Positions 12,756-41,946 are shown, counted from the first letter of the stretch. The stretch is DNA of 64,000 nucleotides from an uncultured Alphaproteobacteria bacterium (GCA_944389345.1 CALXMA010000004.1:14374-78373); one strand, 5' to 3'. Notes: a model not told the origin generated them from the letters alone. Numbers and translations are program-made.

Positions 12756-14099
12756 ATGAAAATAATCAGACACTTGTTTAATCTTTGCGCGCTGGTCGGT
12801 GGCGTCGGGTTGTTGTTTGGTTGCACACCGCGCCAAGAAAACGTCCCACAATATGATACACTGAATGTCGTAGAAAATTTTGTCATAGATGAAAATTCTG
12901 TGCCGATTTTTCCGAAAAAGGCCGCGTTGACAACCGATACCGCGCAACGGTTTTCCATAGAATTACCAAAACGCTGTACGGTCGATTGGAATAACCAGGC
13001 CGTCGTTTCCGTTGTTCCCGAAGAACCTATTGAAATTGTGCGCTTGGGTGTTGGTGATGAATTACCAGAACTGGCCGTGTCGGACTATGAATTTCGTCAA
13101 CTGACCGTGAAAGAGGCGTTGGATAAATTATTAGAAGGCACAAATATTTCGGTAATAGAAGATGGCGAATTAACGGAAACTATATCGGGGTCTATTACGT
13201 CGGGTAATTTGGCGGATTCTGTGGAATTGATGTCAAAAATGGGGCGGGCGTATTATTCGTATGACGCAGAAAACCAGGAAATACATCTGGACCATCGGGC
13301 AAAGTGGTTGTTAAAGATGCCGAAAAATGAAAGTATTATAATGGCGCTGTTGGATGCAATGCATGGCGCAGATATGCGGAACTTGTTGGTGGATTGGCAA
13401 GACAAGACCGTCGTTTTCGAAGGAAATTATCAGACCGAACGCGAAGTCGCGAAAATATTGGCAGATGTGGCGTCTAAGAAATATATGATTGCGTGGGATA
13501 TTGATGTATATCGTGTGTATCCGCGTACGGATAATCCTATTATATGGATGAATTTATTGCCGGCGTTTGGCGATAAAAATGTCAAAATGTCTGTGCCGGG
13601 TGTTGTGGGGCGCGCGTTGGTCGTGGGACCAGAAATTAATACCAAGACGTTGCAAGAATTTTTATCGCAACAATCTAATGTTGTGTTGATTTCCCAGGGT
13701 ACGTTCGTAATTCCAAACGGATGGCAATCGCGGTTTGATATTGGGCAATGCAGTAAAGAAGACAGACTGGAAACAGACCTGGTCATCGGGGCCAAGGCAA
13801 CGTACGGCGATTTCGGTGGCAAGAATAAAATTGATGCGAAAATAGTTTTACGTACCAGCAATGGGGAACTGTCATCGTTTACTATACCGTCCGATGTTGG
13901 TGATAACTATGTGATTATTGGTATACCAACGCATTCATTTGTGACAACGCCAGAAACGTTAATCAGTCCATTCGCGGAACTGGTTGTGTTTATGTCGCCA
14001 CGTATTATTTCTATTGTTGACGCAAATACAACGCCGATTGCAGATGGTACAGAAGTACCACTGGTCGGTGATGCGTTGCGTAGTTTTCTGAGTGAATAA
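12756..14099 (+). CDS. Lipoprotein with secretin-like C-terminal region (uncertain), co-transcribed with lolCD
   Basis: 447 aa. There is a signal peptide with a lipobox (LLFGC|TPRQ). A middle segment, ...LTVKEALDKLLEGTNISVIEDGE..., resembles secretin N-domains. A C-terminal segment, ...GTFVIP...DLVIGAKATYGD...ELVVFMSPRII, resembles the secretin C-domain motif (E-L-l-i-f-i-t-P-r-i) but is shorter than a canonical secretin. Its stop overlaps the lolC start. Confidence 0.5.
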   Translation: MKIIRHLFNLCALVGGVGLLFGCTPRQENVPQYDTLNVVENFVIDENSVPIFPKKAALTTDTAQRFSIELPKRCTVDWNNQAVVSVVPEEPIEIVRLGVGDELPELAVSDYEFRQLTVKEALDKLLEGTNISVIEDGELTETISGSITSGNLADSVELMSKMGRAYYSYDAENQEIHLDHRAKWLLKMPKNESIIMALLDAMHGADMRNLLVDWQDKTVVFEGNYQTEREVAKILADVASKKYMIAWDIDVYRVYPRTDNPIIWMNLLPAFGDKNVKMSVPGVVGRALVVGPEINTKTLQEFLSQQSNVVLISQGTFVIPNGWQSRFDIGQCSKEDRLETDLVIGAKATYGDFGGKNKIDAKIVLRTSNGELSSFTIPSDVGDNYVIIGIPTHSFVTTPETLISPFAELVVFMSPRIISIVDANTTPIADGTEVPLVGDALRSFLSE

Positions 14100-14109
14100 G
14101 GAATCTGTT

Positions 14110-15363
14110 ATGTTTTCAAGGTTGGAACGAAAAATCGCATTCAGATATTTGGCCGCAAAAAAACGCGGTTTTGGTTCTGTTATATCTTGGGTGTCGCTGA
14201 TAGGGATTACGTTGGGGGTGGCGACACTGATTGTGGTTATGTCTGTTATGGGCGGTTTTCATGATACGCTGTTGTCGCGTATCGTTGGTATGAATGGGCA
14301 TGTTGTTGTTTATCACCAGGATGGTGCAATTACGGATTATGACTTTTTAATTGATAAAATGCGCCAAAACAAGGTGGTGGCAGAACACGCAACCGGAATT
14401 GTGCCAATCGCCGAAGGTCAGGTTATGGCCACCGCAAATGGAAATAATACCGGGGCCATGATACGCGGTATACGTATGTCTGATTTGGCGAAAAAGGTTG
14501 ATACTGGTACACGAATTTATGGCAAGCCTTTGGATAAAATTACCGATGGTGAATTGGTTGCGGGGGCGTCATTAACACGGGCGTTGCGTGTTGGTATGGG
14601 GGACAATATTTCATTGGTTTCGGCCAATGGGGCAACCCCAACACCGTTCGGGTCTATGCCACGGATTATGGCGTATCCAGTTATGTCTTCGTTCTTTATG
14701 GGAATGTATGAATATGATTCAGGTTATATTTTTATGCCATTGGATACGGCGCAAAAATATCTGAATATACCAGGGGCCGTAACGCATATTGATTTGTTCT
14801 TGGATAATCCCGAAGAAACGACAGACGTTCGCGAAGCGTTGACACGTCTGTTGCCTGATGGTTTTGTTGTGCGTGATTGGCGCGAATTGAATCGCGGGTT
14901 TGTTGGCGCATTACAGGTTGAATCAAATGTTATGTTCTTGATTTTGATGCTGATTGTTATTGTGGCCGCGTTTAATATTGTGTCCAGTTTGGTTATGTTG
15001 GTCAAAGATAAATCCAAAGATATTGCCGTGTTGCGGACGTTTGGTGTGTCGCGTCGTTCTATGATGAAAATATTTATCTTGTCCGGGACCAGCATCGGAA
15101 TTCTGGGGGCGTTTTTTGGTACGCTGTTTGGTGTTTTAATTGCGATATATATTGAACCTATACGGCAATTTTTCCAGTGGGCAACCGGGCGCGATTTGTT
15201 TCCGGCGGAATTGTATTATTTGTCAGAACTGCCATCGAAATTGGTTTTGACCGATGTTGTTGGAATTGCGTTGATTGCCGTGTTGTTGGCGTTTTTGGCA
15301 ACGCTGTATCCCGCGTGGAAGGCCGCCAGTACAGACCCTGTGGATGTGTTGCGCAATGAATAA
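14110..15363 (+). CDS. lolC: Lipoprotein-releasing system transmembrane permease LolC/E (single-permease type)
   Basis: It reads MFSRLERKIAFRYLAAKKRGFGSVISWVSLIGITLGVATLIVVMSVMGGF, which parallels the E. coli LolC N-terminus. It has the MacB-like periplasmic domain and a C-terminal FtsX helix bundle. The start is chosen at the Met with an AAGGA ribosome-binding site. Confidence 0.85.
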   Translation: MFSRLERKIAFRYLAAKKRGFGSVISWVSLIGITLGVATLIVVMSVMGGFHDTLLSRIVGMNGHVVVYHQDGAITDYDFLIDKMRQNKVVAEHATGIVPIAEGQVMATANGNNTGAMIRGIRMSDLAKKVDTGTRIYGKPLDKITDGELVAGASLTRALRVGMGDNISLVSANGATPTPFGSMPRIMAYPVMSSFFMGMYEYDSGYIFMPLDTAQKYLNIPGAVTHIDLFLDNPEETTDVREALTRLLPDGFVVRDWRELNRGFVGALQVESNVMFLILMLIVIVAAFNIVSSLVMLVKDKSKDIAVLRTFGVSRRSMMKIFILSGTSIGILGAFFGTLFGVLIAIYIEPIRQFFQWATGRDLFPAELYYLSELPSKLVLTDVVGIALIAVLLAFLATLYPAWKAASTDPVDVLRNE

Positions 15364-15379
15364 AGAAAGGAATACAAGA

Positions 15380-16090
15380 ATGGCGAACATATTGAATTCT
15401 TTGTCAAAGGTACCAAAGGGCGACGTTGTGTTGTCTGTGCGCGATATTAAAAAGACTTTTATCGAAGGTGGACAACCGTTGCATATCTTGCGCGGGGGCG
15501 GATTTGATTTACGACGCGGGGAAATTATTGCGCTGGTTGGGCCGTCGGGCAGTGGTAAATCCACGTTGTTGCAATGTGTTGGTTTGTTGGATAAACCAAC
15601 CGGGGGCAGTATTTTGCTGGCGGGGACGCCTGTGCAGAAAATGGATGATGAAATGCGTACCATGATGCGTCGGCGCAAGATAGGATTTGTTTACCAGCGA
15701 CATAATTTACTGGCGGATTTTACGGCGTTGGAAAATGTTGTTTTACCCATGTTGGCAAATGGTGTGGATGAACGTACGGCGTCTGCGCGGGCAATGAAAT
15801 TGTTGCAATCGGCCAATGTTGCACACAGGGCGTCTCATTTGCCGGGGGAAATGTCGGGCGGGGAACAGCAACGTACCGCCGTCGCACGGGCGTTGGCAAA
15901 TGATCCGGAAATATTGCTGGCTGATGAACCAACCGGCAGTTTGGATCCGGCACATGCAACCGCTGTGTTTGATTTGTTGTTGGATTTGGTGCGCAAGAAA
16001 AAAATGGCTATGTTGTTTGTGACGCATGATATGAATTTGGCGTCGCGTGCAGACAGAAAAATTACAATCAATGACGGGATTGTGGAATAA
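15380..16090 (+). CDS. lolD: Lipoprotein-releasing system ATP-binding protein LolD
   Basis: ABC ATPase motifs are present: Walker A GPSGSGKST, the LSGGEQQR signature and Walker B ILLADEPTG. The start is at MANILNS (15380) with an AAAGGA ribosome-binding site. The ORF track begins upstream inside lolC. Confidence 0.9.
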   Translation: MANILNSLSKVPKGDVVLSVRDIKKTFIEGGQPLHILRGGGFDLRRGEIIALVGPSGSGKSTLLQCVGLLDKPTGGSILLAGTPVQKMDDEMRTMMRRRKIGFVYQRHNLLADFTALENVVLPMLANGVDERTASARAMKLLQSANVAHRASHLPGEMSGGEQQRTAVARALANDPEILLADEPTGSLDPAHATAVFDLLLDLVRKKKMAMLFVTHDMNLASRADRKITINDGIVE

Positions 16091-16103: not shown

Positions 16104-16111
16104 TGTATAAT
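16104..16111 (+). promoter_or_regulatory. Extended -10 element (TGTATAAT) upstream of the Cys-repeat operon
   Basis: TGTATAAT lies 27 bp upstream of the first ATG of the operon. The ribosome-binding site GGGAGAGGG is at 16127-16135. Confidence 0.4.
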
Positions 16112-16137
16112 GGTATCAACAGGCAAGGGAGAGGGTT

Positions 16138-16848
16138 ATGAAAAAAGCAGGCAAGGCACCTGTGAAAAAGACAGGTAAAAAAGTTCAAGATTGTCCGATT
16201 AATTGTTGCAGTACCGCGCATAAGGTGTGGAGTGCTGTTGCATTGGCGGGGTTGTTTGCGTGCGGTTTGATTTTGGGGTTGACGTATAATCAAACAGATG
16301 CGGTTCAGGCAAAGATGGATGCACAACAGTGTGATGCAATCGCAAATGAAATTGTTAATATAACAACAAACGGCGCAACACCAGAAAATATCGATACGCT
16401 GAATGAATTAAATCAGGCGTATTTGGACGGATGTGCGGGACGGTTGGTCGTTATTGAAAAGCCTGTGGTGAAATCAATTGCGTCGCGCCCAGAAATTGTT
16501 TCTACGTGCGACAGAATTGAACAATTGTTGCAAAAACGTCTGTACCCAGAAGATAACCCAGAATACTGGAAACATTTGGCAAACGCCGATACGTACAGTA
16601 CTTTGGCCGACAGGGGGTGTGCGGAAAATTCAGAAATGTATAAAACGTTGGCGTTGCGGGAATTGGATATTGCAACGGCGTTGAAACCAACGGAATCTAT
16701 GGGAACGCGTGATGCAGAAATTGTTATCGATACGTTCAAGAAATTAGATATGCAACAAGAAGCACGTGAATTCTTGGGCAAAGTAGAAAAACTGATAGAT
16801 CCGGCAACCGATTTTATCTTGCAAATGGAACAGATTATCAATGAATAA
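16138..16848 (+). CDS. Membrane-anchored extracytoplasmic protein with two Cys-bracketed repeat units (unrecognised family); gene A of a 4-gene operon
   Basis: 236 aa. It has a Lys-rich N-terminus (MKKAGKAPVKKTGKK) and one TM helix (WSAVALAGLFACGLILGL). Two repeat units follow: C-DAIANEIV...YLDGCAGR and CDRIEQLLQKRLYPEDNPEYWKHLANADTYSTLADRGCAEN. Gene D is a paralogue. Confidence 0.6.
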   Translation: MKKAGKAPVKKTGKKVQDCPINCCSTAHKVWSAVALAGLFACGLILGLTYNQTDAVQAKMDAQQCDAIANEIVNITTNGATPENIDTLNELNQAYLDGCAGRLVVIEKPVVKSIASRPEIVSTCDRIEQLLQKRLYPEDNPEYWKHLANADTYSTLADRGCAENSEMYKTLALRELDIATALKPTESMGTRDAEIVIDTFKKLDMQQEAREFLGKVEKLIDPATDFILQMEQIINE

Positions 16849-17512
16849 AATAAAATTGAAATTTTTATGTGCCGTGTTGTCTTGTGTTGCGGTTGCGCCC
16901 GCAATGGCGGAAACCACAACGGAATTGCGCACGGACTGTACCGAAATACAATCGCGTATCAGTGAACTGGCCGCAATTACAGAACCAGATGATGCGACAA
17001 AATCTGAACTGGCACAATTACAGGCGGTGTATCGTCGGGATTGTTCAAAGCCCGCCGCAGGTCGCAGAACAATTGGGCGCGTGTCTATGGCGGCGTCGGC
17101 AACACCTGTGGCCGCAACCGCAACTGTGGACACAACCCCAGAAACTGTTGTTGTCACGGTCGCAAATTTGTTGGATGACTATTTGGACCAGCGTCGCGAT
17201 TTGTGTGCCGAATTGGCTGATGATATAGAAATGTTGGCCGATAATAATGCGTCTGATGCGGAATTAGAACCTTTGCAAAATCAGTACAAGGCAGATTGTG
17301 AAGACGTTGATCATTCAAAGACCGTGGATATAGACCCAGAAGTGGCCGCCGCAAATGTGGCACGGGGACTGTGCACAGATGGTTCAAAGCCCAATGAATA
17401 CGGTTGCTGTGATGGGGAACGGTTCACAGATATGGGAAATTTGGTGTTTGCGTGCTGTCCCGAAGATGGGGGCGAATGCTATCCACCTATTAATTCGGGG
17501 ACAAAATTATGA
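16841..17512 (+). CDS. Secreted Cys-rich protein: signal peptide + two Cys-bracketed helical repeats + C-terminal 6-Cys module ending YPPI; gene B
   Basis: 223 aa. The signal peptide is MNKIKLKFLCAVLSCVAVAPAMA|ETT. Two repeats are DCTEIQSRISELAAITEPDDATKSELAQLQAVYRRDC and LCAELADDIEMLADNNASDAELEPLQNQYKADC. The C-terminal module reads CTDGSKPNEYGCCDGERFTDMGNLVFACCPEDGGECYPPI. The gene overlaps gene A by 8 bp. Confidence 0.6.
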   Translation: MNKIKLKFLCAVLSCVAVAPAMAETTTELRTDCTEIQSRISELAAITEPDDATKSELAQLQAVYRRDCSKPAAGRRTIGRVSMAASATPVAATATVDTTPETVVVTVANLLDDYLDQRRDLCAELADDIEMLADNNASDAELEPLQNQYKADCEDVDHSKTVDIDPEVAAANVARGLCTDGSKPNEYGCCDGERFTDMGNLVFACCPEDGGECYPPINSGTKL

Positions 17513-17754
17513 AGAAAATCTATGTGGTTTTAATCGCAATTGCATTGTTTGTGTGTGGTGGAATTACCGGATATGTAATTGCCGTATGTGCCGGAAACAG
17601 TGCACATAGCGCCGATATAGATATTACGTGTATAGATGGCAGTATGCCCGATGAAAATGGTTGTTGCGCGGGCGAGGTTTATACCGATATGGGTGATTTA
17701 GGGTTTAATTGCTGTCCGCCGGGTGATGGGGATTGCTATCCACCAATCAGATAA
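17509..17754 (+). CDS. Small (81 aa) membrane-anchored/secreted Cys-rich protein carrying the same C-terminal 6-Cys module; gene C
   Basis: It has an N-terminal hydrophobic segment (MKKIYVVLIAIALFVCGGITGYVIAVCAG). It then carries CIDGSMPDENGCCAGEVYTDMGDLGFNCCPPGDGDCYPPI, which is co-linear with the C-terminus of gene B (C-x9-CC-x14-CC-x5-C-YPPI). The start overlaps the gene B stop (ATGA). Confidence 0.55.
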   Translation: MKKIYVVLIAIALFVCGGITGYVIAVCAGNSAHSADIDITCIDGSMPDENGCCAGEVYTDMGDLGFNCCPPGDGDCYPPIR

Positions 17755-17775
17755 GTTTTTATAGGAGGAGTCCAG

Positions 17776-18642
17776 ATGAGAGAGAAAGTAAAATCAGAAA
17801 AGGCAGTACGTGCACCACGTCGTCGCCGTGTGTGGCCGTGGGTGTTGGTTTTGTTAATTGTTGTATGTGGGTCTGGGGCCGTGATTCTGCATGAATTGGG
17901 GTATTTGAAATGGCGTGGAATAGATGCCGTAATAAATACCGTTATGCCGAATGACGAAAATATCAATATAGTGGCAACAGATGTTGCGGTTGCGCCCGTT
18001 GATACTGTCCAGGTCGCAGATGCGGAAAGTTCAGATATCGTTATTCGGCCCGCATGTGCCGTTATCGAAGACGCATTGTTGGCGCAAATCGTTGATGATG
18101 ATAACCCAGATTGGCAGGCACAATTTGATTCTTCGCGTGTGTATGCGACGTTGGCCCAGCGGGGATGTGCCCAAAATGCCAAGTTTTTCAGCGATATGTC
18201 TGTGCGTAAACAAACCATAGCCGAAGGATTGCGCGCGGTATATGACCAGGGCAGTGATGAAATGACGTCTGTTGAATATCTGTATTCAGATGAAAAAATA
18301 TGCCAGACAATCGAAAATCGTGTATTGCAAAATATAAACGTGAACGCGTATTCTTATGATGAATTCTTGCGCAATGCGAATACGTATTCTGTGTTGTATG
18401 AATATGGATGTCGCGATAATAAAATGGCGTATTCGCGGGCATCTATTCGTGAACTGGCAATCGCGTTGGCATTGGTGCCGGCAGACAAAATGACCCAAGA
18501 CGAAATCATAACGGTGATAGAGGTGTATAAACGTCTGGGCGCACCGACGTTGGCACATTTGGTTTTGCAACGCTTAAAGGCCCGCGGGTATGATATGGAT
18601 TTCTTGTTAAGCCTGGAAGATATCATTCATGGCATGCGATAG
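17776..18642 (+). CDS. Membrane-anchored extracytoplasmic protein with two Cys-bracketed repeat units (paralogue of gene A); gene D
   Basis: 288 aa. It has an Arg-rich N-terminus and a TM helix (RRRRVWPWVLVLLIVVCGSGAVIL). The two repeats are CAVIEDALLAQIVDDDNPDWQAQFDSSRVYATLAQRGCAQN and CQTIENRVLQNINVNAYSYDEFLRNANTYSVLYEYGCRDN. A GGAGGAG ribosome-binding site is present. Confidence 0.6.
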   Translation: MREKVKSEKAVRAPRRRRVWPWVLVLLIVVCGSGAVILHELGYLKWRGIDAVINTVMPNDENINIVATDVAVAPVDTVQVADAESSDIVIRPACAVIEDALLAQIVDDDNPDWQAQFDSSRVYATLAQRGCAQNAKFFSDMSVRKQTIAEGLRAVYDQGSDEMTSVEYLYSDEKICQTIENRVLQNINVNAYSYDEFLRNANTYSVLYEYGCRDNKMAYSRASIRELAIALALVPADKMTQDEIITVIEVYKRLGAPTLAHLVLQRLKARGYDMDFLLSLEDIIHGMR

Positions 18643-18704: not shown

Positions 18705-18779
18705 GCGGGCATAGTACAAAGGCTAGTATGCAAGCCTTCCAAGCTTGAAATGCGGGTTCGATTCCCGCTGCCCGCACCA
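18705..18779 (+). tRNA. tRNA-Gly (anticodon TCC)
   Basis: GCGGGCATAGTACAAAGGCTAGTATGCAAGCCTTCCAAGCTTGAAATGCGGGTTCGATTCCCGCTGCCCGCACCA. The anticodon loop is CTTCCAA, the T-loop is the canonical TTCGATT, and CCA is encoded. Length is 75 nt. Confidence 0.85.
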
Positions 18780-18868: not shown

Positions 18869-18893
18869 GCGCGGTTTCCCGCTGCCCGCACCA
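18869..18893 (+). repeat. Direct repeat of the 3' end of tRNA-Gly (truncated tRNA fragment), 114 bp downstream of the intact copy
   Basis: gcgcggTTTCCCGCTGCCCGCACCA at 18869-18893. Its 18-nt core TTCCCGCTGCCCGCACCA is identical to 18762-18779. This is the att-like duplication typical of integrase-mediated insertion at a tRNA 3' end. Confidence 0.7.
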
Positions 18894-18975: not shown

Positions 18976-19062
18976 GGGCGTGCGCCGGAGTTGGAGAGCC
19001 GGGGCAGACTGTAAATCTGTTGGCTTAAGCCTGAGGTGGTTCGAATCCACCCACTCCCACCA
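18976..19062 (+). tRNA. tRNA-Tyr (anticodon GTA), class II with long variable arm; possibly slightly aberrant
   Basis: GGGCGTGCGCCGGAGTTGGAGAGCCGGGGCAGACTGTAAATCTGTTGGCTTAAGCCTGAGGTGGTTCGAATCCACCCACTCCCACCA. The anticodon loop is CTGTAAA and the long variable arm is typical of Tyr. The T-loop is the canonical TTCGAAT and CCA is encoded. Two oddities are C rather than U at position 8 and a C4:U69 mismatch in the acceptor stem. Confidence 0.65.
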
Positions 19063-19305
19063 AAACACAAACCGACCGAATGGTCGGTTTTTGTTTTGTG
19101 ATGGGGTGGTGAGATGAGAACCACTGGTTCGACAATGAGTAGATTTGACAAGCACCGCGCGGTCAAATCGTTAGGAATGCCCCACAGCCGGCGTGATAAC
19201 GCCGTGCGAGGGAATCCACCCACTCCCACCAAAACACAAACCGACCGAATGGTCGGTTTTTGTTTTGTGATGGAGTGGTGAGATGAGAGCCACTGGTTTG
19301 CAATA
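19043..19305 (+). repeat. Two copies (19043-19136 and 19212-19305; ~94 bp, 3-4 mismatches) of a segment comprising the tRNA-Tyr 3' end + rho-independent terminator + ~45 bp; period 169 bp
   Basis: GAATCCACCCACTCCCACCAAAACACAAACCGACCGAATGGTCGGTTTTTGTTTTGTGATGG(G/A)GTGGTGAGATGAGA(A/G)CCACTGGTT occurs twice. The terminator hairpin is CCGACC-gaat-GGTCGG followed by TTTTT. The second copy lacks the 5' part of the tRNA, so it is an att-like scar or a tandem duplication. Confidence 0.7.
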
Positions 19306-35136: not shown

Positions 35137-36234
35137 ATGGCAAAAAAAGAAGTCGCAAAAGATGTTTCGGCACCGGCAAAAAATCCGGCGTTGGAATCTG
35201 CGTTGGCACAAATTCAAAAGCAATTCGGTAAAGACGCAATTATGAAAATGGGCGATGGGTCCCAGCAGGGGATTGAGGCTATTTCGTCCGGGTCTTTGGG
35301 ATTGGATATCGCGTTGGGAATTGGTGGGTATCCGCGCGGGCGAATTGTTGAAATTTATGGTCCGGAAAGCAGTGGTAAAACCACACTGGCATTGCATGCC
35401 GTGGCCGAAGCGCAAAAAAAAGGTGGGACTTGCGCATATATTGATGCGGAAAATGCGTTGGATCCGTCGTATGCAAAAAAACTGGGTGTTGATGTCGCAA
35501 ATTTAATTATATCCCAGCCGGATTCCGGGGAACAGGCGTTGGAAATTGCCGATACGCTGATTAAATCTGGGGCGGTTGATGTTGTTGTTATCGATTCGGT
35601 TGCGGCACTGGTGCCCAAGGCGGAATTAGAGGGTAATATTGGTGATTCTTTTGTTGGAACAACCGCGCGGTTGATGTCGCAGAGTTTGAAAAAATTGGCG
35701 GGGTCTGTGTCGCGCAGTAATACGCTGTTAATCTTTATTAATCAAATCCGTATGAAGATTGGGGTTATGTTTGGAAACCCGGAAACGACATCTGGGGGGA
35801 ATGCGTTAAAGTTCTATGCGTCGGTGCGTCTGGATATTCGTCGCACGGGTCAGATTAAGGATAAAGAAAACGTTATCGGTAATGAAACGCGTGTTAAAAT
35901 TGTTAAAAACAAGGTTGCGCCACCATTCCGTACCGTCGATTTCAAAATTATGTATGGCGAAGGTATTTCCCGTATCAGTGAAATTCTGGACATGGGGGTA
36001 AAGTACGATTTTATCGAAAAAGCCGGCAGTTTTTATTCTTATAATAATGAACGTATGGGCCAGGGTGAAAATAATGCGCGTCAATGGTTGCGCGATCACC
36101 CAGATGTTCAACAGGAATTGTTAGATAAAATTATGGCGCGCGCAAATGGTATCGCCGAAGAAATGACAACGGGGCCGGCCGATGACGATGATGTTGTCGG
36201 ACAGGATGTGGCGCCGGTTGAAGGGGATTTATAA
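35137..36234 (+). CDS. recA: Recombinase RecA
   Basis: Walker A is GPESSGKTT. Further motifs are ...[17 protein letters not shown]..., the L2 loop region ...[35 protein letters not shown] and an acidic C-terminal tail. The start is taken at MAKKEV (AAGGGGAA lies 6 nt upstream). Confidence 0.97.
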
Positions 36235-36247
36235 AAAAGGGGTAAAT

Positions 36248-37153
36248 ATGAATTTGGCCAGAATTTGGACTCTGTCGGGTGTGGTTTTGCGTGGGCATGT
36301 GTTGAATTGGTTTTGGCGGGACCGTGCCGTGCGTCATGATATTCGTGGCGATGTAATAGGAACGGCGTTGCCAAAATATTTTCGGCGCTATTTATCAGCA
36401 GTTGAACGTATGCCCGTCAGAAGTGTGGTCAAAGACGATGCAAACGAAAAAATATTTACCATCTGGTTACAGGGCGAAGACAATGCGCCACCGTTGGTCA
36501 AGGCCTGCTATCGCAGTGTGCGAAAGCATTGCAAGCAAGAATTGGTGGTGTTGGACGAAAAAACGTTGCCACAATATATTACTCTGCCAGATGTAATTAT
36601 GAAAAAACGCGCCCAGGGAAAAATTAAAAACGCGCATTTCGCGGATATTTGTAGGGTGGAATTATTATATAAGTATGGCGGTTTTTGGTTGGATTCAACC
36701 GGATTTGTTACCGCACCAATTCCTGATTGGATTGTGAATGAAGATTTCTTTGTGTTCATGGCGGGGCACGCGGGCAGTCCGTACAGTTTTATACAAAACT
36801 GTTTCATTCGGGCGCGTCGGGGTGCGTATTTGCTGGATGCGTGGCGGGCAATGATTCTGGATTACTGGACCCATGAAAACAGCAACTTTGATTATTTTAT
36901 GCACCAATTAATGTTCAAGACATTGGTCATGTATGACGAACGTGCAAAAAAAGAATTCGCCAAAATGCCACATGTCGACCAAGATCCGACCCATGCGCTG
37001 TGGTGGGAATATTGTGATAAGCCGTTTAATCAAAAAACATTTGATTCTGTTGTGGCGCCCGTGTTCTTTCAAAAGACTACGTATGCCCAGGCTAAAAATC
37101 CAATCCCGGGCAGTTTCGCAGATGTTATGATTAATAAAATGAACCAAGACTGA
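36248..37153 (+). CDS. Capsular-polysaccharide-synthesis-like glycosyltransferase (DxD sugar-binding type)
   Basis: It has ...IFTIWLQGEDNAPPLVKACYRSVRKH... and ...YKYGGFWLDSTGF..., which resemble the Caps_synth/Gly_transf_sug family. The start is at MNLARIW (AAGGGG ribosome-binding site). The ORF track start lies inside recA. Confidence 0.6.
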   Translation: MNLARIWTLSGVVLRGHVLNWFWRDRAVRHDIRGDVIGTALPKYFRRYLSAVERMPVRSVVKDDANEKIFTIWLQGEDNAPPLVKACYRSVRKHCKQELVVLDEKTLPQYITLPDVIMKKRAQGKIKNAHFADICRVELLYKYGGFWLDSTGFVTAPIPDWIVNEDFFVFMAGHAGSPYSFIQNCFIRARRGAYLLDAWRAMILDYWTHENSNFDYFMHQLMFKTLVMYDERAKKEFAKMPHVDQDPTHALWWEYCDKPFNQKTFDSVVAPVFFQKTTYAQAKNPIPGSFADVMINKMNQD

Positions 37154-37170
37154 TGCGGGGGGAAATAGGT

Positions 37171-38205
37171 ATGCCGGAAATTTCTGTGATTATCCCTGTG
37201 TACAATGTGGAAAAGTATCTGCGTCGTTGTTTGGACAGTTTGTTGGCCCAGACATTTACCGATTGGCATGCGATATGTGTAAATGACGGCAGTGTGGATA
37301 AATCTGGGGAAATTTTGGCCGAATACGCACAACGCGATTCGCGTTTTACCGTGGTGAATATTCCAAATTCTGGGCCCGCATGTGCGCGAAATGTTGGTAT
37401 AGAACGGGCCCAGGGAAAATACGTAATGTGTGTTGATGGGGATGATTTTATTCATCCCCAGACAATGGAAATCGCGCATTTCTTGGCCGTGCGGGATGGG
37501 TCTGATATTGTGTCTTTTACATATGACAGATCGTATCGTCCTTATTTAATGGTGCGATATAAATTGGGGTTGGGGATAGAAAATATCGAACCGCTGGGGA
37601 TTCGGCGTCGGTATCGGCCCGCGGCGGTGCGGACGTTGGTGACGGATGATATTTTTGCCTATGCGACAGAACAGACGCATAATGCATTTAATCCAAAGCG
37701 CAGGTGGCTGATTAAGCATACGCAGGTTTGGAAAAATTTGTATAGGCGCGATTTAATTGCAGATGTAAAATTTATTGATGGAATTTTGTACGAAGATTTC
37801 CCGTGGTGGTCGGCGGTCATGCTGAAAAATCCGCGGGTGACAATTGCGCCGTTGCCGTTGTATTATTATGTGCCGAATTTTGGCGGAATATTCTTGTCCG
37901 CCGGCCAGATGCGTGCGTTTGATGGAATGTGTACGGGTGTGCGGGATACTTTTTTGTTGTACCAGGCCAAAGCGAGCCCGTATCAAATGCAACAATGGTC
38001 CAAGAACTTTAAGTGGTATTTTATCAAGTGGGCATTTAATAAAATTAAATATTTTACCAGTGTGGCGGATTTGAACAAGGCGCGCAATTGGTTCAGGGAA
38101 CTGGACAGAATTGGGGCGTTGGATAGTCCGCATAACAAAAAAACAAAAAAACTGCGTCAGAAAATTTGCGCGTTTATAAAGGATTGCCACCAAAATGACA
38201 GATGA
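37171..38205 (+). CDS. Family 2 glycosyltransferase (GT-A), paralogue 1 of 3
   Basis: It has ISVIIPVYNVEKYLRRCLDSLLAQTF...ICVNDGSVD...MCVDGDDFIHP (DxD). The start is at MPEISV. The 3' end contains an A7-C-A7 tract (38138-38152). Confidence 0.85.
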   Translation: MPEISVIIPVYNVEKYLRRCLDSLLAQTFTDWHAICVNDGSVDKSGEILAEYAQRDSRFTVVNIPNSGPACARNVGIERAQGKYVMCVDGDDFIHPQTMEIAHFLAVRDGSDIVSFTYDRSYRPYLMVRYKLGLGIENIEPLGIRRRYRPAAVRTLVTDDIFAYATEQTHNAFNPKRRWLIKHTQVWKNLYRRDLIADVKFIDGILYEDFPWWSAVMLKNPRVTIAPLPLYYYVPNFGGIFLSAGQMRAFDGMCTGVRDTFLLYQAKASPYQMQQWSKNFKWYFIKWAFNKIKYFTSVADLNKARNWFRELDRIGALDSPHNKKTKKLRQKICAFIKDCHQNDR

Positions 38206-39244
38206 CAAACCAAAAATTTCAGTAATAATTCCAATATACAATGTGGAAAAATATTTGCGTCGCTGTTTGGACAGTATGTTGTCCCAAACATTTACCGATT
38301 GGCAGGCGATATGTGTAAATGACGGCAGTCCTGATAACTGTGGTGAAATATTATCAGAATATGCCGGACGTGATGGTCGTTTCAAAATAGTAAACAAAGA
38401 AAACGGTGGGCTGTCTGATGCGCGAAATGCGGGTATGCGTGTTGCAGACGGCGATTTTATTTTATTTTTAGACAGTGATGATTTTATTCATCCGCAAACA
38501 CTGGAAATCGCATATTTTCTGGCCACGCGTGATGGCACAGACATTGTTTCTTTTACCTATGATCGCGCGTTCAGAACGGAACTGATGGTGCGTAATAAAC
38601 TGGGGTTGGCGTGCGATGGGGTTATGCCGAAAAAATATAATCGTCGGTATCAGATTGCACAAATAAAAACGTTGGTTACCGACGACGTTTATGCGTATGC
38701 AACCGAACGCACCCATAATGCATTTAATCCAAAGCGCAGGTGGCTGATTAAGCATTGTCAGGTTTGGAAAAATTTATATCGGCGTGAACTGATTTCAGAT
38801 ATTCCTTTTATTAAGGGGATTTTATTCGAAGATTTCCCGTGGTGGTCGGCGGTCATGCTGAAAAATCCGCGGGTGACAATTGCGCCGTTGCCGTTGTATT
38901 ATTATGTGCCGAATTTTGGCGGGATTGTTTTGTCGGCTAAACAGTTGCGTATTTTGCACAGTTTGTGTGATGGTATGGAATATGCGTACAAGTTATACAG
39001 CACGCAGGCCACAGAATATCAGGCGCGTCAATGGAATTACAATTTTAAGTGGTTCTTTATAAAGAAGATTTTGCGTAAAACAAAATACTTGGATAATCGG
39101 GTGGATTTGAATTCTGCGCGGGAACGTGTTTGTGAATTGGAAAAAATTGGCGCGTTGGATAATCCGCCGTGTCGGTGGGCGCGACGTGTGCGGTGTCGTG
39201 TGTGTCATTTTATAAAGGATTGTTGTAAGCATGTCAAAGCGTAA
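38195..39244 (+). CDS. Family 2 glycosyltransferase, paralogue 2 of 3 (mosaic: 5' third identical to paralogue 3, central block identical to paralogue 1)
   Basis: It has KISVIIPIYNVEKYLRRCLDSMLSQTF...NDGSPD...LFLDSDDFIHP. The DNA at 38207-38511 is identical to 39243-39547, and 38828-38922 is identical to 37792-37886. Confidence 0.85.
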   Translation: MTDDKPKISVIIPIYNVEKYLRRCLDSMLSQTFTDWQAICVNDGSPDNCGEILSEYAGRDGRFKIVNKENGGLSDARNAGMRVADGDFILFLDSDDFIHPQTLEIAYFLATRDGTDIVSFTYDRAFRTELMVRNKLGLACDGVMPKKYNRRYQIAQIKTLVTDDVYAYATERTHNAFNPKRRWLIKHCQVWKNLYRRELISDIPFIKGILFEDFPWWSAVMLKNPRVTIAPLPLYYYVPNFGGIVLSAKQLRILHSLCDGMEYAYKLYSTQATEYQARQWNYNFKWFFIKKILRKTKYLDNRVDLNSARERVCELEKIGALDNPPCRWARRVRCRVCHFIKDCCKHVKA

Positions 39245-40253
39245 ACCAAAAATTTCAGTAATAATTCCAATATACAATGTGGAAAAATATTTGCGTCGCT
39301 GTTTGGACAGTATGTTGTCCCAAACATTTACCGATTGGCAGGCGATATGTGTAAATGACGGCAGTCCTGATAACTGTGGTGAAATATTATCAGAATATGC
39401 CGGACGTGATGGTCGTTTCAAAATAGTAAACAAAGAAAACGGTGGGCTGTCTGATGCGCGAAATGCGGGTATGCGTGTTGCAGACGGCGATTTTATTTTA
39501 TTTTTAGACAGTGATGATTTTATTCATCCGCAAACACTGGAAATCGCGCACAAGTACATTGTACAAAATAACGCAGATGTGTTTTTGTTTGGGTATGATG
39601 AAAAATCGCACCGTAAATTATTACGGTTGATGCGGGGCGGGTTTGATGTGTCGGGGTGTGTGCCGGGGGCGGTGAGCAGAAAATACAATATCGATGGCGT
39701 GCATGTGCACAAGATAAAAAAATTATTGTTTCACTGTACCGAACGAAATCGTACTGTGCGGGTTTTGCATCCTGTGCGTCGGCATTGTTTCCCGGTGTTG
39801 GCATTGTATCGACGTGATTTCATTTCTGATTTGCCGTTCGTGCGTGGAATTATATATGAAGATTTTGTTTGGTGGTCTTTATTGATTCTGCGTCGGCCCA
39901 AGACGGTTATGACAAAATTACCGTTGTATTTTTATATGCCGAATCCGACGTCTATATTAAATGCATCGCGTGCGTTGCGGGTGGTGAAATCATTATGTGA
40001 TGGAATTGGTATTGTTTACGATGCGTATTCTGTGAATGCGACGGGGCGCGAATTAAAGCATTATATGCGGGAGTTTTTGTGGCCGTTTACATTCATCGCA
40101 ATGCAACATGCACGCCAGATTACAGACGAAAAAGACCGGGCCATTGTGGCAGATAATTTGAAAAAATTATACAGCGCGGGTGTGTTTGATAATCCACCGA
40201 ATCGGCGCGCACGGCGGTATCTGGGGCGAATACGGGATTTTATAAATAACTAG
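39231..40253 (+). CDS. Family 2 glycosyltransferase, paralogue 3 of 3
   Basis: The N-terminal 100 aa are identical to paralogue 2. The C-terminal two-thirds have diverged (...VFLFGYDEKSHRKLL...). Confidence 0.85.
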   Translation: MSKRKPKISVIIPIYNVEKYLRRCLDSMLSQTFTDWQAICVNDGSPDNCGEILSEYAGRDGRFKIVNKENGGLSDARNAGMRVADGDFILFLDSDDFIHPQTLEIAHKYIVQNNADVFLFGYDEKSHRKLLRLMRGGFDVSGCVPGAVSRKYNIDGVHVHKIKKLLFHCTERNRTVRVLHPVRRHCFPVLALYRRDFISDLPFVRGIIYEDFVWWSLLILRRPKTVMTKLPLYFYMPNPTSILNASRALRVVKSLCDGIGIVYDAYSVNATGRELKHYMREFLWPFTFIAMQHARQITDEKDRAIVADNLKKLYSAGVFDNPPNRRARRYLGRIRDFINN

Positions 40254-41101
40254 ATTCTGGATTTTTGAAAGCGCGATGGAATTTTTACAACGCGACGCAG
40301 GCCGAACATCCCGGGTTTGTCGAATGCATATATTGGGCGTGCAAAAGTTTGTATGATGCGCGCGTATCGCATCCATTTTTCGTCGCGTACGGGCAGGGTG
40401 GATACCGCATTAATTGTTCCGTTCCCCCGACGGCGCAGGTGATTTACCCAATCGGGACCACGGGATTTGGCCTTGTTCAACAGCATCTGCATATCGACCG
40501 CACCAAAGTGTAACAAGTATAAGTTTTTATCAATGTGAAAATTGTGACCAGATATGCTGTGGAAACCACTGCCCCAATGGGCGGGGGTGGTTTTTACAAC
40601 AGGCTTGGTATATCTGGTGGATAACAGTGCATATTCACGTTGGGCCAGGATGGGTTTGTTGATGTCCAAAGTTTTTTCTGTGTTCGTGTTTTGACCAACG
40701 TCCAGTCCCAATCCCGATACCGATATATTTATGTCCAGGTCAGATAAATATTCGGCCAATGTTTTTTGTGTGTCTGGATCAACAACCAGAAATTCATCAC
40801 AATCGCAACCAATTACTATATCGTATGTTTTCAGCAATTTGTGTGCCAATGTGTTTATCAGTCCTATGCGATATTTGTCGCCATCGGCGCGCGACATTTC
40901 AACGTGCGATAATTTCTTTACATGGGCCGGACCGGCATTTTCAGGAATATTTTGATCCGTTCCATCCAGGTATATGTACAGGTTTTCACGACCAAATTGT
41001 TCCCCGTAATATTTTATCCAACGGGATAAAAAGAAATCGTCATTGCGGGCCATTGTTATGACCGCGATTTTTTTTTGTGTATGGTTTGTTGGATTGGTCA
41101 T
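40250..41101 (-). CDS. Putative GT-A-fold glycosyltransferase with A9 homopolymer at codons 9-12
   Basis: It has ...KKIAVITMARNDDFFLSRWIKYYGEQFG...YDIVIGCDCDEFLVVDPD (DxD-like). The start is taken at MTNPTNHTQKK. Nine consecutive A (minus strand) at 41068-41076 encode QKKI. Confidence 0.55.
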   Translation of the reverse strand: MTNPTNHTQKKIAVITMARNDDFFLSRWIKYYGEQFGRENLYIYLDGTDQNIPENAGPAHVKKLSHVEMSRADGDKYRIGLINTLAHKLLKTYDIVIGCDCDEFLVVDPDTQKTLAEYLSDLDINISVSGLGLDVGQNTNTEKTLDINKPILAQREYALLSTRYTKPVVKTTPAHWGSGFHSISGHNFHIDKNLYLLHFGAVDMQMLLNKAKSRGPDWVNHLRRRGNGTINAVSTLPVRDEKWMRYARIIQTFARPIYAFDKPGMFGLRRVVKIPSRFQKSRI

Positions 41102-41946
41102 ATTCCCTCGCCAAAAAGTTTGTGAAAAAAGTATCTGCAACTTCTGTATAATATTTTAATAGGATTTCGTGTTAAAAGCCAGTCTATATATTCCGTGCCG
41201 TATGCGTCGCGTGCGCTGGTCAGTATTATGTCGCGCAGGTCGGGGGATAAATGCGACAGGATATATGACAACTGGCCACCAAGACGGCCATAGTGGCGGG
41301 TGAACGCGACCTTTTTGAAAAATGGACATTTGGATTTATAGAAATATTTTACGTTGTTGTATATCTTGCGTCCAGGGGCCGTATACAGGTACGAAAATTT
41401 AATGTTGTGTGCAAACAACATACGGGAAAATCCTTGTTCGTAAAAATATGTTATCAGGCCTTTGTTTGGTTGACGTGATACAGATGTTATAAATTTATCA
41501 AACCAGTTTGATGCAAATACCGGTTTGCGCATACCAATAAACCAAGATTGGATATGCGGGTTTTTGCGATTCGCATTATATACCAAACCAAACGCGTCGC
41601 GATTCGTTGATTCCAGTTTTTCCAGCGCGGGTAATAATGGATTTACCGGGCCATATACCGAATCGTTTATCATATATACAAATTCATAATTGCCCAGAAT
41701 TCCCGTGTCCCGGGCATATATGTATGCGCGTTTATATGAACCAAAATCGTATTCACCGTGCCGGTGGGCCGATGCAAAGATTGTGTACGGTGCAACCTTG
41801 TGCATTTCTGTGTCTGGCACATCACTGTCCATAACCAGGATAACATCGCCAAATTCAGACAGGCTTTTTGCCATATAAACCAGCGATGCATCAACCACGT
41901 TTTTTGCATTATAGCCGGCCAATAAAAATAGTCGTCTAGATTTCAC
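41098..41946 (-). CDS. Polysaccharide-biosynthesis protein (rhamnan-synthesis RgpF-like / LPS biosynthesis, uncertain)
   Basis: 282 aa. It is hydrophilic with conserved-looking acidic clusters (...VILVMDSDVPD..., ...YMINDSVYGP...). It sits inside the glycosyltransferase locus, overlapping the upstream typA stop by 11 bp and the downstream glycosyltransferase start by 4 bp. Confidence 0.4.
   Translation of the reverse strand: MKSRRLFLLAGYNAKNVVDASLVYMAKSLSEFGDVILVMDSDVPDTEMHKVAPYTIFASAHRHGEYDFGSYKRAYIYARDTGILGNYEFVYMINDSVYGPVNPLLPALEKLESTNRDAFGLVYNANRKNPHIQSWFIGMRKPVFASNWFDKFITSVSRQPNKGLITYFYEQGFSRMLFAHNIKFSYLYTAPGRKIYNNVKYFYKSKCPFFKKVAFTRHYGRLGGQLSYILSHLSPDLRDIILTSARDAYGTEYIDWLLTRNPIKILYRSCRYFFHKLFGEGI

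Follow-up and report, generated by a model that had tools for sequence, protein, structure and literature searches.

Among described proteins, the nearest concept to the four genes considered here (A to D) is, by analogy only, that of the disulfide-bridged Sel1-like repeat proteins: HcpA, HcpB and HcpC of Helicobacter and the mitochondrial COA7. Sel1-like repeat proteins have been described as protein- and peptide-binding scaffolds (PMC8892353), and the disulfide bridging of Hcp and COA7 is regarded as unusual for this repeat class (PMC1941758, PMC8892353). Another point of comparison is offered by periplasmic TPR proteins such as PilW/PilF, TadD, the TPR domain of BepA and BcsC, whose similarity to A and D is generic and structural only (≤17% sequence identity), and from which these differ by their disulfide staples and their N-terminal membrane anchor. 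Elsewhere, it is well established that TPR receptors can read C-terminal tags, as exemplified by the pairs PTS1-PEX5 and EEVD-Hop.

The four genes were found in a stretch of 64,000 nucleotides, hereafter the window, from an uncultured gut alphaproteobacterium ascribed to Candidatus Enterousia (order Rs-D84), whose genome spans about 0.9 Mb. They lie directly 3′ of lolC and lolD (Table 1), which together supply the lolCE equivalog permease and the LolD ATPase of a LolCDE-type transporter. Further upstream lies a conserved gene for a predicted lipoprotein of 447 residues, present before lolC in every locus with enough flanking sequence, 78-87% identical across the clade and overlapping lolC by 8 bp. 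This lipoprotein has no Pfam, NCBIfam or PDB match and reaches STN only below threshold (E=0.012); a secretin identity was considered and rejected, hhalign against GspD, HofQ and pIV giving a probability of 0.7% and the PDB no match. As the preliminary description had it, A to D are four reading frames with overlaps of 8 bp (A/B) and 4 bp (B/C); they lie on the plus strand, and 21 bp separate C from D. Its cysteine brackets in A, B and D were likewise recovered, as were the single anchors of A and D, the AxA signal peptide of B (a signal-peptide-like N-terminus) and the hydrophobic N-terminus of C (Kyte-Doolittle 2.5), and hydropathy and the positive-inside rule, on which our topology calls are based, agree that all four products are directed outside the cytoplasm.

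Table 1. Features of the locus, with positions counted from the first nucleotide of the window.
Feature	Position	Strand	Description or basis
447-aa predicted lipoprotein	12756..14099	+	ORF; lipobox LLFG|C23; first large gene of the conserved block
lolC/E-type lipoprotein-release permease	14092..15363	+	TIGR02212 lolCE, 410.8 bits (cut-off 362.45); FtsX and MacB_PCD
lolD ABC ATPase	15380..16090	+	best NCBIfam match TIGR02211 LolD, 247.5 bits (below the 307.75 cut-off); ABC_tran
TATAAT -10-like hexamer, possible internal promoter	16106..16111	+	in the 47-bp lolD-A spacer; TG abuts at 16104-16105
Gene A, 236 aa	16138..16848	+	predicted bitopic inner-membrane protein; two Cys-bracketed periplasmic units, conserved C-terminal helical cap
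A cytoplasmic Cys motif (C19, C23, C24) and anchor (about residues 30-48, embedded C42)	16192..16281	+	alignment
A first Cys bracket, C65-C99	16330..16434	+	conserved in A orthologues
A canonical A/D-type unit, C124-C161 and third helix	16507..16686	+	alignment
Gene B, 223 aa	16841..17512	+	predicted Sec-exported soluble protein; two Cys-closed helical hairpins, disordered linker, C-terminal six-Cys module
B predicted signal peptide, residues 1-23, ending AMA before ET	16841..16909	+	hydropathy; conserved PAxA motif in family alignment
B helical hairpin 1, C33-C68	16937..17044	+	family alignment, AlphaFold
B helical hairpin 2, C122-C153	17204..17299	+	family alignment, AlphaFold
B C-terminal six-Cys mini-domain, C178, C189-190, C205-206, C213	17372..17491	+	65% identity to the C copy
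Gene C, 81 aa	17509..17754	+	predicted membrane anchor, short linker (about 12 residues), six-Cys mini-domain
C six-Cys mini-domain, C41, C52-53, C68-69, C76	17629..17748	+	alignment with the B copy
Gene D, 288 aa	17776..18642	+	predicted bitopic inner-membrane protein; TPR-like all-helical periplasmic solenoid, two Cys-bracketed units, three-helix cap
D membrane anchor, residues 20-40	17833..17895	+	after strongly basic N-terminus
D unit 1, C94-C131 closing helices 93-102 and 113-129, then helix 132-156	18055..18243	+	
D unit 2, C176-C212 closing helices 172-184 and 194-210, then helix 213-233	18301..18474	+	
D C-terminal three-helix cap (LQRLKARGYDMDFLLSLEDIIHGMR)	18496..18639	+	best-conserved D-family segment

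A to D are genuine genes under purifying selection. Their dN/dS lies between 0.08 and 0.31 (0.08-0.23 for A), compared with 0.03-0.07 for lolC and lolD, and homologues are numerous, with more than 80 clusters for D, 48 for B and 157 representative clusters at 50% identity. Spurious or decaying reading frames with chance cysteine patterns might be suspected from the lack of any database annotation and from homologues that are all unnamed or entered as 'hypothetical protein'; this view is nevertheless already refuted by conservation and selection statistics, to which the invariant cysteines, strong Shine-Dalgarno sites and conserved start/stop overlaps may be added, and it retains next to no probability. 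As first proposed, no named family could be assigned to the four products: searches of Pfam, NCBIfam, PADLOC, PHROGs and PDB sequences gave no significant match, those to the anti-phage and phage models of PADLOC and PHROGs staying at noise level (E≥0.0057), and fold searches gave nothing beyond generic helical-repeat matches.

Both the A/D and the B/C families are absent from databases and confined to the order Rs-D84, all 30 of 30 genome loci coming from Enterousia or from uncultured alphaproteobacterial metagenome-assembled genomes. An A/D-type and a module-type reading frame (the latter carrying the six-cysteine module of B and C) occur together in 85 of 86 lolD-containing loci, the sole exception being a truncated contig, and even the weakest profile matches sit immediately behind lolD or the gene for the permease. 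Throughout the order, the conserved core consists of a single A/D-type gene and a single module-type gene following lolD; the window holds an expanded, four-gene version of it. Gene number per locus varies from 2 to 6: C is dispensable, being absent from 9 of the first 30 genome loci, and D was lost in at least one lineage. The placement after lolCD noted in the preliminary description is confirmed, but the layout, taken there as unusual, is conserved across the whole order with variable gene number.

A and D are paralogues, matching each other at E=1e-13, and A matches the family HMM at 7.9e-73. Each carries a basic N-terminus followed by one hydrophobic 19-mer (Kyte-Doolittle 2.2-2.4), and both are predicted to be single-pass inner-membrane proteins with the N-terminus inside. 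The cytoplasmic Cys motif together with the anchor is the best-conserved part of the A family, reading C.(I/V)(N/D)C-CS..HK(I/V)W.A(V/I)ALAGLF(A/V/S)CGL.LGL, and the membrane segment of A is conserved more than its periplasmic domain. Within this segment, a lipobox-like context is found in 49 of 133 family representatives and in none of the D orthologues; in A itself, LFAC42 is followed by GLILGL, so that the entire segment can be read as a membrane helix of 19 residues. AlphaFold models D as all-helical, with pLDDT of 84-96 for most of residues 91-288 and below 70 in the linker 157-171, and from this model the A/D unit can be described as three helices over about 80 residues, with one cysteine at the start of the first helix and the other just after the second. 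The periplasmic part of both proteins is a TPR-like all-helical solenoid. D units 1 and 2 match unit 2 of A at E=7e-12 and E=1e-13, respectively, and a DF(I/L)L..E.II motif is common to the D cap and the A C-terminus. Contrary to the first interpretation, the first bracket of A shows no significant similarity to unit 2, and some relatives have an ASH-like beta domain in its place. Only C124, G160 and C161 (A numbering) are invariant family-wide; G160, E128, Y153 and N164 stand out among the conserved non-cysteine positions.

With its antiparallel helix pairs, the A/D domain qualifies as an alpha/alpha solenoid, and the Cys-Cys spacing (mode 37 residues) is close to the length of a Sel1-like repeat, which is about 36-44 residues. 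It is nevertheless important to stress the differences: the three-helix unit of about 80 residues bears its own signature, C-x2-IE...Y-x2-L-x3-GC-x-EN; A and D are predicted to be membrane-anchored, whereas Hcp-type proteins are soluble and secreted; and, unlike those for Hcp and COA7, A/D genes are always paired with a six-Cys-module gene beside lolCD. No Sel1 (PF08238) match at E≤1 was obtained for A, D or 63 diverse relatives, and a TPR profile (TPR_8) matched only 2 of 63 family members at the level of noise (E≥0.016), a TPR having 34 residues compared with the roughly 80 of the A/D unit.

The second family is built differently. B and C match each other at E=7e-18, and this match is confined to a 40-aa Cys-rich module at the C-terminus, so that the paralogue pairs first described hold for A/D, and for B/C only over this module, which had not been singled out. 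The hallmark of B and C is a new C-terminal mini-domain of about 40 residues, C-x10-CC-x14-CC-x6-C, in which C, GCC, CC and C are invariant. The remainder of B is modelled as two hairpins (pLDDT 80-94 for 33-68 and 107-153) joined by a linker (71-104) below 50; in some relatives the second hairpin is replaced by a second Cys module. The module of B is modelled with small beta elements at modest quality (pLDDT 65-76). Profile-profile comparison of the A/D and B/C families by hhalign gives a probability of 0.9%, pointing to two unrelated families; the single unit of about 40 residues formerly attributed to A, B and D alike does not hold, the hairpins of B having no detectable homology to the A/D unit. 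Small CC-doublet modules such as granulin resemble the mini-domain in being short and Gly-/aromatic-rich, in carrying GCC and CCP doublets and in being predicted to form small beta hairpins. However, its C-CC-CC-C pattern differs from the granulin, hevein and knottin frameworks. Neither a granulin profile nor the 12-Cys or half-domain framework was found, B, C and isolated modules having no Pfam match at E≤1, and Foldseek returned nothing with E<1.

The mini-domain is always the last domain of its carrier: 150 of 173 copies end no more than 10 residues from the stop codon, and the remaining 23 are the first of a tandem pair. Its carriers extend beyond B and C. In related contigs it ends TrbI/VirB10-family proteins (PF03743, 57.5 and 56.5 bits, cut-off 35), adjoined by a gene for a CagX/VirB9 protein (PF03524, 73 and 71 bits, cut-off 34.2) that carries a C-terminal SPOR domain; no such module-bearing VirB10/TrbI or CagX gene occurs in the window. 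It also ends a membrane protein of 713-728 aa with one predicted membrane segment and long acidic flanks, encoded beside GcrA. At one locus (L035), a single protein combines the module with a membrane anchor and a pair of A/D units. In being small, terminal and attached to unrelated carriers, the module recalls SPOR, LysM and OmpA-C-like end-domains, with which it shares no sequence or fold similarity; the likeness concerns how it might work.

Concerning the cysteines, the bracketing residues do not vary among 26 sequences of the D family and 22 of the B family, and the spacing noted at first is conserved in homologues. The number of external cysteines is even in 117 of 123 distant family representatives (binomial p=8e-28), and the distance between consecutive cysteines is 27-43 residues in 69% of pairs, a share that shuffling lowers to 19% (sd 2%); most D orthologues carry a fifth, unpaired periplasmic cysteine. 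Based on their positions at helix starts and helix ends, and on the even-Cys rule, the pairs would be structural disulfides. The disulfide-stapled helical hairpins suggested by the preliminary description agree with the AlphaFold helices and with this rule, but the A/D units form three-helix solenoids instead of isolated hairpins.

The conserved cysteines might instead be functional, forming a periplasmic thiol-redox or metal-handling relay for alternative oxidative folding or metal buffering. CC doublets, a feature of metal-binding proteins, count for such a relay, and so does the tally, as made for this reading, of cysteines as the only invariant residues across the A/D family. COA7 has disulfide-reductase activity and binds haem (PMC8892353), and the lineage is reported to be without respiratory chains, hence without the usual DsbB re-oxidation route (PMC12306168). 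However, no CxxC or other redox-active motif is present, cysteines at one helix start and the next helix end are typical structural staples, their even numbers and spacing of about 37 fit structural pairs, and the conservation of G160, E128, Y153 and N164 is what a fold signature would be expected to show; we consider a relay highly doubtful. CHCH-type proteins and COA7 of the mitochondrial intermembrane space are loose analogies for it. The annotated part of the window yielded no Dsb gene, and, with respiratory chains reported as missing from the lineage, the route of periplasmic disulfide formation is hard to explain; this point and the unpaired fifth cysteine of most D orthologues count against our preferred reading, given below.

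From the overlaps, the short gaps and the lack of a terminator, A to D are predicted to be co-transcribed. Their own extended -10 element was claimed at first; a perfect TATAAT does stand before A, followed by a G-rich Shine-Dalgarno sequence, but its TG abuts the hexamer directly, compared with the canonical TGnTATAAT, and a two-hexamer promoter scan did not pick it up. The hexamer is only partly conserved: in about half of 35 loci an exact TATAAT precedes the start of A by 24-41 nt, and most of the others have a near-match. Where no additional A-like copy lies upstream, lolD and A are separated by just 15-48 bp, which argues for read-through from lolCD, and no terminator-like site occurs on the plus strand between lolD and A. 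The tight coupling behind the proposed four-gene operon stands, but the unit is probably longer, given the overlap between the lipoprotein gene and lolC.

Such coupling to lolCD raises the possibility that A to D are Lol accessory factors, which would receive, sort or insert lipoproteins with LolCD in a lineage devoid of LolB, as Alphaproteobacteria are (PMC9963962). The linkage to lolC-lolD holds in 85 of 86 loci, on the same strand and with short gaps, despite differing downstream neighbours (tRNA-Gly, secB, dnaJ, GNAT); yet upstream synteny (ftsQ, ftsA, uvrB) is conserved equally, so that linkage may reflect vertical inheritance. The strong conservation of the A membrane segment would be expected if A touched a partner such as LolC within the membrane, and the LF(A/G)C context of the embedded cysteine in a subset of the family is identical to the lipobox of the upstream lipoprotein. 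In contrast, the dN of A to D is 4-6 times that of lolCD, which weakens the case for tight functional coupling to Lol, as do the variable gene number, the frequent loss of C and the loss of D. Furthermore, the module is also found on VirB10 homologues and on further proteins encoded outside the lol neighbourhood, the all-helical A to D proteins lack similarity to LolA or LolB folds, and a bifunctional LolA already accounts for trafficking without LolB in Caulobacter (PMC9963962). Overall, a Lol accessory role seems rather unlikely.

Fast evolution, variable copy number and domain make-up, as well as hints of recombination (the dS of C and D falls far below that of lolC in two locus pairs), could alternatively mean that A to D are secreted or surface-exposed and interact with a host or partner cell whose pressure makes them diversify, by analogy with the cysteine-rich Sel1-like proteins of Helicobacter. 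Hcp proteins, with their disulfide-bridged alpha/alpha repeats, raise high antibody titres in infected people (PMC1941758); the lineage, with its reduced genome, may rely on a partner organism, and its many hypothetical membrane proteins have been suggested to mediate cell-cell interactions (PMC12306168); and a type IV secretion component is among the carriers of the module. However, dN/dS does not exceed about 0.3 and reveals no gene-wide positive selection, a Sel1 match is missing from all 63 relatives, a cleavable signal peptide is present in B only, and no outer-membrane export route is evident. The uncleaved N-in anchors and strongly basic N-termini of A, C and D predict retention at the inner membrane, so that the surface-exposed, adhesive or inhibitor roles first suggested find no support, and we regard a host-directed function as unlikely.

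The best explanation, which we advance tentatively as somewhat short of probable, is that A/D scaffolds and the six-Cys module together organise periplasmic complexes. The A/D solenoids would act as membrane-anchored protein-binding scaffolds or receptors, and the mini-domain as a portable binding or anchoring knob, its portability being suggested by its terminal position on unrelated carriers. This knob may dock B and C, and elsewhere the VirB10 homologue and the large bitopic protein, to a common envelope partner, which, as a guess, could be either the A/D solenoids or a ubiquitous component of the wall or outer membrane. A functional link between the two families is indicated by their constant co-occurrence and by the L035 fusion protein. 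The linker of C, with about 12 residues, compared with the long linkers and near-outer-membrane display in B and the VirB10 homologues, makes a single fixed target location hard to define. In this organisation, A to D would make up a network of periplasmic interactions specific to the lineage, with its expression tied to that of LolCD.

Finally, a more far-reaching proposal, to which we give little credence, is that scaffold and module represent a previously undescribed C-terminal-tag sorting or anchoring system in two-membrane bacteria. If true, a disulfide-stapled TPR-like receptor, anchored in the membrane and co-expressed with LolCD, would read a portable Cys-knot tag at the C-terminus of various carriers, including the VirB10 core of a type IV secretion system, and so determine their place in the envelope, and it would do so in a lineage with a minimal genome that may depend on a partner organism.

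The four proteins encoded directly after lolC and lolD (A, B, C and D) fall, on sequence grounds, into two unrelated families, A/D and B/C. None of them gave a meaningful match to any Pfam, NCBIfam, PADLOC or PHROGs model, and the family profiles of D and B found nothing in the PDB, so that the view of the preliminary description that they belong to no recognised family stands. The proposed paralogy of A and D was borne out (BLASTP E=1e-13), with the second unit of A being matched by both D units; the first and second Cys brackets of A are not significantly similar to each other (BLASTP). The idea that A, B and D are built from one repeat unit had to be given up, since the A/D and B profiles lack homology (hhalign probability 0.9%): the shared repeat is therefore true in geometrical terms only, and the B hairpins were rejected as copies of the A/D unit. 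Hairpins 1 and 2 of B showed no significant similarity either (BLASTP). As for the paralogy suggested for B and C, it holds for a cysteine-rich C-terminal stretch of 40 residues (65% identical, E=7e-18, BLASTP), the two proteins being related through nothing else. A defence-system or prophage origin was rejected given the lack of PADLOC and PHROGs matches, as was membership in the Sel1 family (zero matches in the window proteins and 63 diverse relatives) or the TPR family (TPR_8 in two of the 63 relatives, which is noise level). A and D are classified here as cysteine-stapled helical-repeat envelope proteins, and the six-Cys mini-domain accompanying them as new. The closest parallel is offered by Hcp from Helicobacter and human COA7, Sel1-like repeat proteins with disulfide-bridged alpha/alpha repeats, whose intra-repeat disulfide was described as unusual (PMC1941758, PMC8892353); in contrast, the A/D unit comprises three helices and about 80 residues, and has a different signature.

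Cysteine brackets were found at 65/99 and 124/161 in A, 33/68 and 122/153 in B, and 94/131 and 176/212 in D, in agreement with the first description. Aligning 26 D and 22 B sequences shows these cysteines to be fully or almost fully conserved, and their spacing is kept both there and in 123 distant representatives. By word-indexed search, protein clusters with 40-99% identity were recovered for D (84) and for B (48), all of them unnamed and without a Pfam domain, and an exhaustive profile search covering 1.84 billion representative proteins yielded 157 clusters at E≤0.001, in nearly all of which a hydrophobic anchor at the N-terminus precedes Cys pairs. The number of extracytoplasmic cysteines is even in 117 of the 123 full-length distant representatives (p=8e-28), in which Cys-Cys spacing has its mode at 37 residues and 69% of consecutive Cys pairs lie 27-43 residues apart, versus 19±2% after shuffling. 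As a caveat, a fifth periplasmic Cys without a partner is present in the majority of D orthologues (EICKS, residue ~250), which may represent a free thiol or form an intermolecular disulfide; the window D carries a Tyr at this place (EVYKR). A thiol-redox or metal role of the four proteins seems most improbable, given that the CxxC motif is absent. Among the genuine ORFs of the window, which is part of the genome, no Dsb-like CxxC proteins were seen.

All four proteins are predicted to be extracytoplasmic, and the topologies proposed for them are supported by hydropathy and charge: in A and D a strongly basic N-terminus precedes a single hydrophobic 19-mer, that of B resembles a signal peptide with AMA before ET, and that of C is hydrophobic. 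An AlphaFold model of D, built on the 26-sequence alignment, is all-helical, with pLDDT values of 84-96 in the two units and below 70 in the linker (157-171). Unit 1 consists of a helix from C94 (93-102), a second one ending before C131 (113-129) and a third (132-156), whereas unit 2 comprises helices 172-184 (with C176), 194-210, followed by C212, and 213-233, after which comes a three-helix cap. In each modelled unit one Cys marks the start of helix 1 and the other the end of helix 2, so that each pair sits where helix 1 begins alongside the end of the antiparallel helix 2, in the predicted geometry of a staple; A and D are predicted to fold as a TPR-like solenoid. The most conserved segment of the A family is not the periplasmic part but a cytoplasmic C..C-CS motif plus the anchor HK(I/V)W.A(V/I)ALAGLF(A/V/S)CGL.LGL. 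The residues after the embedded Cys are hydrophobic, and among 133 representatives no more than 49 show lipobox-like surroundings at this Cys, so that A appears to be better read as having a membrane helix than as a lipoprotein. In two relatives (L032, 8001-9035; L036, 7001-7855), the first hairpin of the A-type protein gives way to a beta-rich domain that contains a Cys pair of its own, and sub-threshold ASH matches were recorded in two family members (best E=0.0033).

The coordinates initially given for A-D proved exact, with all four ORFs found on the + strand (see the table). A and B overlap by 8 bp, B and C by 4 bp, and C and D are separated by 21 bp. The permease encoded upstream meets the lolCE equivalog cut-off (TIGR02212, 410.8 vs 362.45). 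Co-transcription of A-D with lolCD is likely, because genes of the block overlap, the lolD-A gap measures 15-48 bp where no additional A-like copy lies upstream, and no terminator-like site was detected on the + strand of the lolD-A spacer; A-D are probably included in a longer lipoprotein-lolCD-ABCD transcription unit. In roughly half of the loci a TATAAT sequence lies some 30 nt ahead of A, which points to an extra internal promoter. The dN/dS ratio of A-D (0.08-0.31, pairwise Nei-Gojobori) is 3-5 times higher than that of lolC and lolD (0.03-0.07), and their median dN is 4-6 times that of lolC/lolD; A-D are nonetheless under clear purifying selection, and spurious ORFs are refuted as an explanation. 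These low ratios, together with the N-in anchors, also speak against an Hcp-like role of A-D at the surface or in host interaction, which is distinctly unlikely. In the genome pairs L006/L010 and L026/L028, dS is 0.07-0.15 for C and D versus 0.31-0.62 for lolC, which suggests that the distal part of the block (C-D) recombined or was exchanged between lineages. No further A-D paralogues were found elsewhere in the 64-kb window.

Features of the window considered in the text
Feature	Coordinates	Strand	Remarks
AsmA-like protein, 825 aa	4490-6967	-	annotation
ORF, 595 aa	9417-11204	-	FtsA/PilM-type domain (~186-323) and complete ribulose-phosphate 3-epimerase (387-575)
Lipoprotein-like ORF, 126 aa	11944-12324	-	between ftsQ and lipoprotein gene
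ORF, 120 aa	12372-12734	+	between ftsQ and lipoprotein gene; no Pfam match
Predicted lipoprotein, 447 aa	12756-14099	+	lipobox LLFG/C; overlaps lolC by 8 bp
Gene A	16138-16848	+	ORF
Gene B	16841-17512	+	ORF
Gene C	17509-17754	+	ORF
Gene D	17776-18642	+	ORF
Six glycosyltransferase-type genes	36182-41946		Caps_synth, three Glycos_transf_2, Glyco_tranf_2_4, RgpF-like
Ctp-type protease	55229-56734		annotation
FtsK	57504-59771		annotation

The 447-aa lipoprotein encoded upstream of lolC is highly conserved (1246 homologue clusters, all unnamed), has no Pfam, NCBIfam or PDB relative and contains two invariant cysteines, C74 and C332, in its mature part; a word-indexed search recovered close orthologues only. 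The suspicion that it is a degenerate secretin, raised by its C-terminal 'AELVVFMSPRII', was rejected: the Pfam STN match is sub-threshold (E=0.012), PDB sequence and profile searches were empty, and comparison with GspD, HofQ and pIV gave an hhalign probability of 0.7%. At positions matching those of the two small ORFs downstream of ftsQ, relatives have genes for 107 aa (L032, L034, L036) and for 126 aa (L034, L036; 53 aa in L032), and the FtsA/PilM-epimerase fusion was also called in these three contigs. Downstream of D, the 3' end of tRNA-Gly (18 nt, 18762-18779) has a 100% identical copy 114 nt further on (18876-18893), and a stretch of 87 nt comprising the 3' end of tRNA-Tyr and the hairpin that follows it (19043-19129) has a 98% identical one 169 nt downstream (19212-19298); these duplications could be att-like integration/excision scars or small tandem duplications. 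The glycosyltransferase-type cluster suggests a surface-polysaccharide locus.

The order Rs-D84, to which Enterousia is assigned, comprises widespread gut bacteria with genomes of 0.75-1.0 Mb, without a TCA cycle or respiratory chain and with almost no recognisable transporters, for which the describing authors suggested a partner-dependent lifestyle (PMC12306168). With each species represented by one genome, scanning gave 30 loci. All belong to metagenome-assembled gut genomes of uncultured (alpha)proteobacteria, among them four named Candidatus Enterousia species and one closed chromosome of 958,618 bp. The order 447-aa lipoprotein, lolC, lolD, A, B, (C), D was found in every locus with enough flank, and even the weakest profile matches adjoin lolD or a permease gene directly downstream. 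What follows lolD differs between loci in a modular way: five loci carry additional A-like copies, nine of the 30 lack C, L032 lacks D, B is shortened to a signal peptide plus the six-Cys module in L019, and six genes follow lolD in L036. When all fetched loci are combined, 85 of the 86 containing lolD have both an A/D-type and a module-type ORF, the sole exception being a truncated contig. Since one gene of each type is the commonest configuration after lolD, the four-gene operon of the window is an enlarged version of a conserved two-gene core. Six relatives (L006, L009, L010, L017, L023, L029) have an ORF of about 250 aa without a signal peptide between lolC and lolD, which is not present in the window.

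The stretch common to B and C is a six-Cys module with the consensus GLCxDGxxPDKxGCCxGExYTDMGDLxFACCPxxGGxCFPPIK, of which C, GCC, CC and C are invariant. It has no Pfam match, also when searched alone, and a granulin, hevein or knottin identity was rejected, with neither Pfam nor Foldseek supporting it; to judge from its sequence, it is a new mini-domain without known relative. The module, as well as its occurrence on VirB10 homologues, is an addition to the preliminary description. A metagenome scan with the module found 80 loci, mostly of the lolD type, with seven being otherwise. Five of these contigs (L063, L064, L077, L086, L090) encode a protein of 816-851 aa that ends in the module and combines a membrane anchor with a beta domain, a linker rich in Pro and Glu, and a TrbI/VirB10 domain (PF03743, 57 bits, cut-off 35), preceded by a gene for a CagX/VirB9-family protein with a C-terminal SPOR domain. 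The N-terminal beta domain of these homologues looks similar to the beta-rich domain of some A-type proteins, and in L090 it has a sub-threshold Cep192_D4 match; YidC is encoded nearby in L063 and L090, and LspA also in L090. The two remaining contigs (L089, L094) encode a protein of 713-728 aa with a single predicted membrane segment and the module at its end, adjoining in L094 a homologue of GcrA, an alphaproteobacterial regulator; its N-terminal region appears coiled-coil-like by eye, with very acidic low-complexity regions. The GC content of the non-lolD contigs (0.34-0.41) lies inside the lolD-type range (0.33-0.51). Among module copies in ORFs ending at a stop codon, 150 of 173 lie within 10 residues of the C-terminus, and the remaining 23 each precede a second copy in tandem; the module is portable and always terminal. 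Searches of the window for type IV secretion genes found none, the candidate ORFs being FtsK and the Ctp-type protease.

Co-occurrence of the A/D and module families is obligatory, and in one case they are fused: in L035 the module is joined to a membrane anchor and two A/D-type units in a single protein of 346 aa, which by analogy would link both families as gene fusions tie interacting partners. A composite mechanism is tentatively favoured, with somewhat less than even confidence, in which the Cys pairs would form disulfides, A and D would act as membrane-anchored binding scaffolds, and the module would serve as a binding or anchoring knob by which diverse carriers dock to a common envelope partner. 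The descriptive part is much firmer than this mechanism. The invariable linkage to the lol genes and the conserved A anchor would also suit direct Lol accessory factors; this role is nevertheless unlikely for A-D, as their evolutionary rates do not match those of lolCD, their copy number varies, the module is used by non-Lol proteins, and a bifunctional LolA is already a known solution in Alphaproteobacteria (PMC9963962). Very little likelihood is given to a sorting or anchoring system coupled to Lol in which the module would act as a C-terminal tag.

Because the gene set is retained in every member, adjoining essential lipoprotein-export genes, A-D likely matter for building or using the envelope, despite the minimal genome and their fast evolution. 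What is defined is a new family of Cys-stapled helical-repeat membrane proteins, of a design that was considered unusual when seen in Hcp and COA7, a new six-Cys end-domain common to homologues of type IV secretion VirB10, and a clear, testable pairing of the former with the latter. Should the module be a true sorting or anchoring tag, it would represent a novel organising principle of the envelope; otherwise, A-D would be lineage-specific structural proteins.
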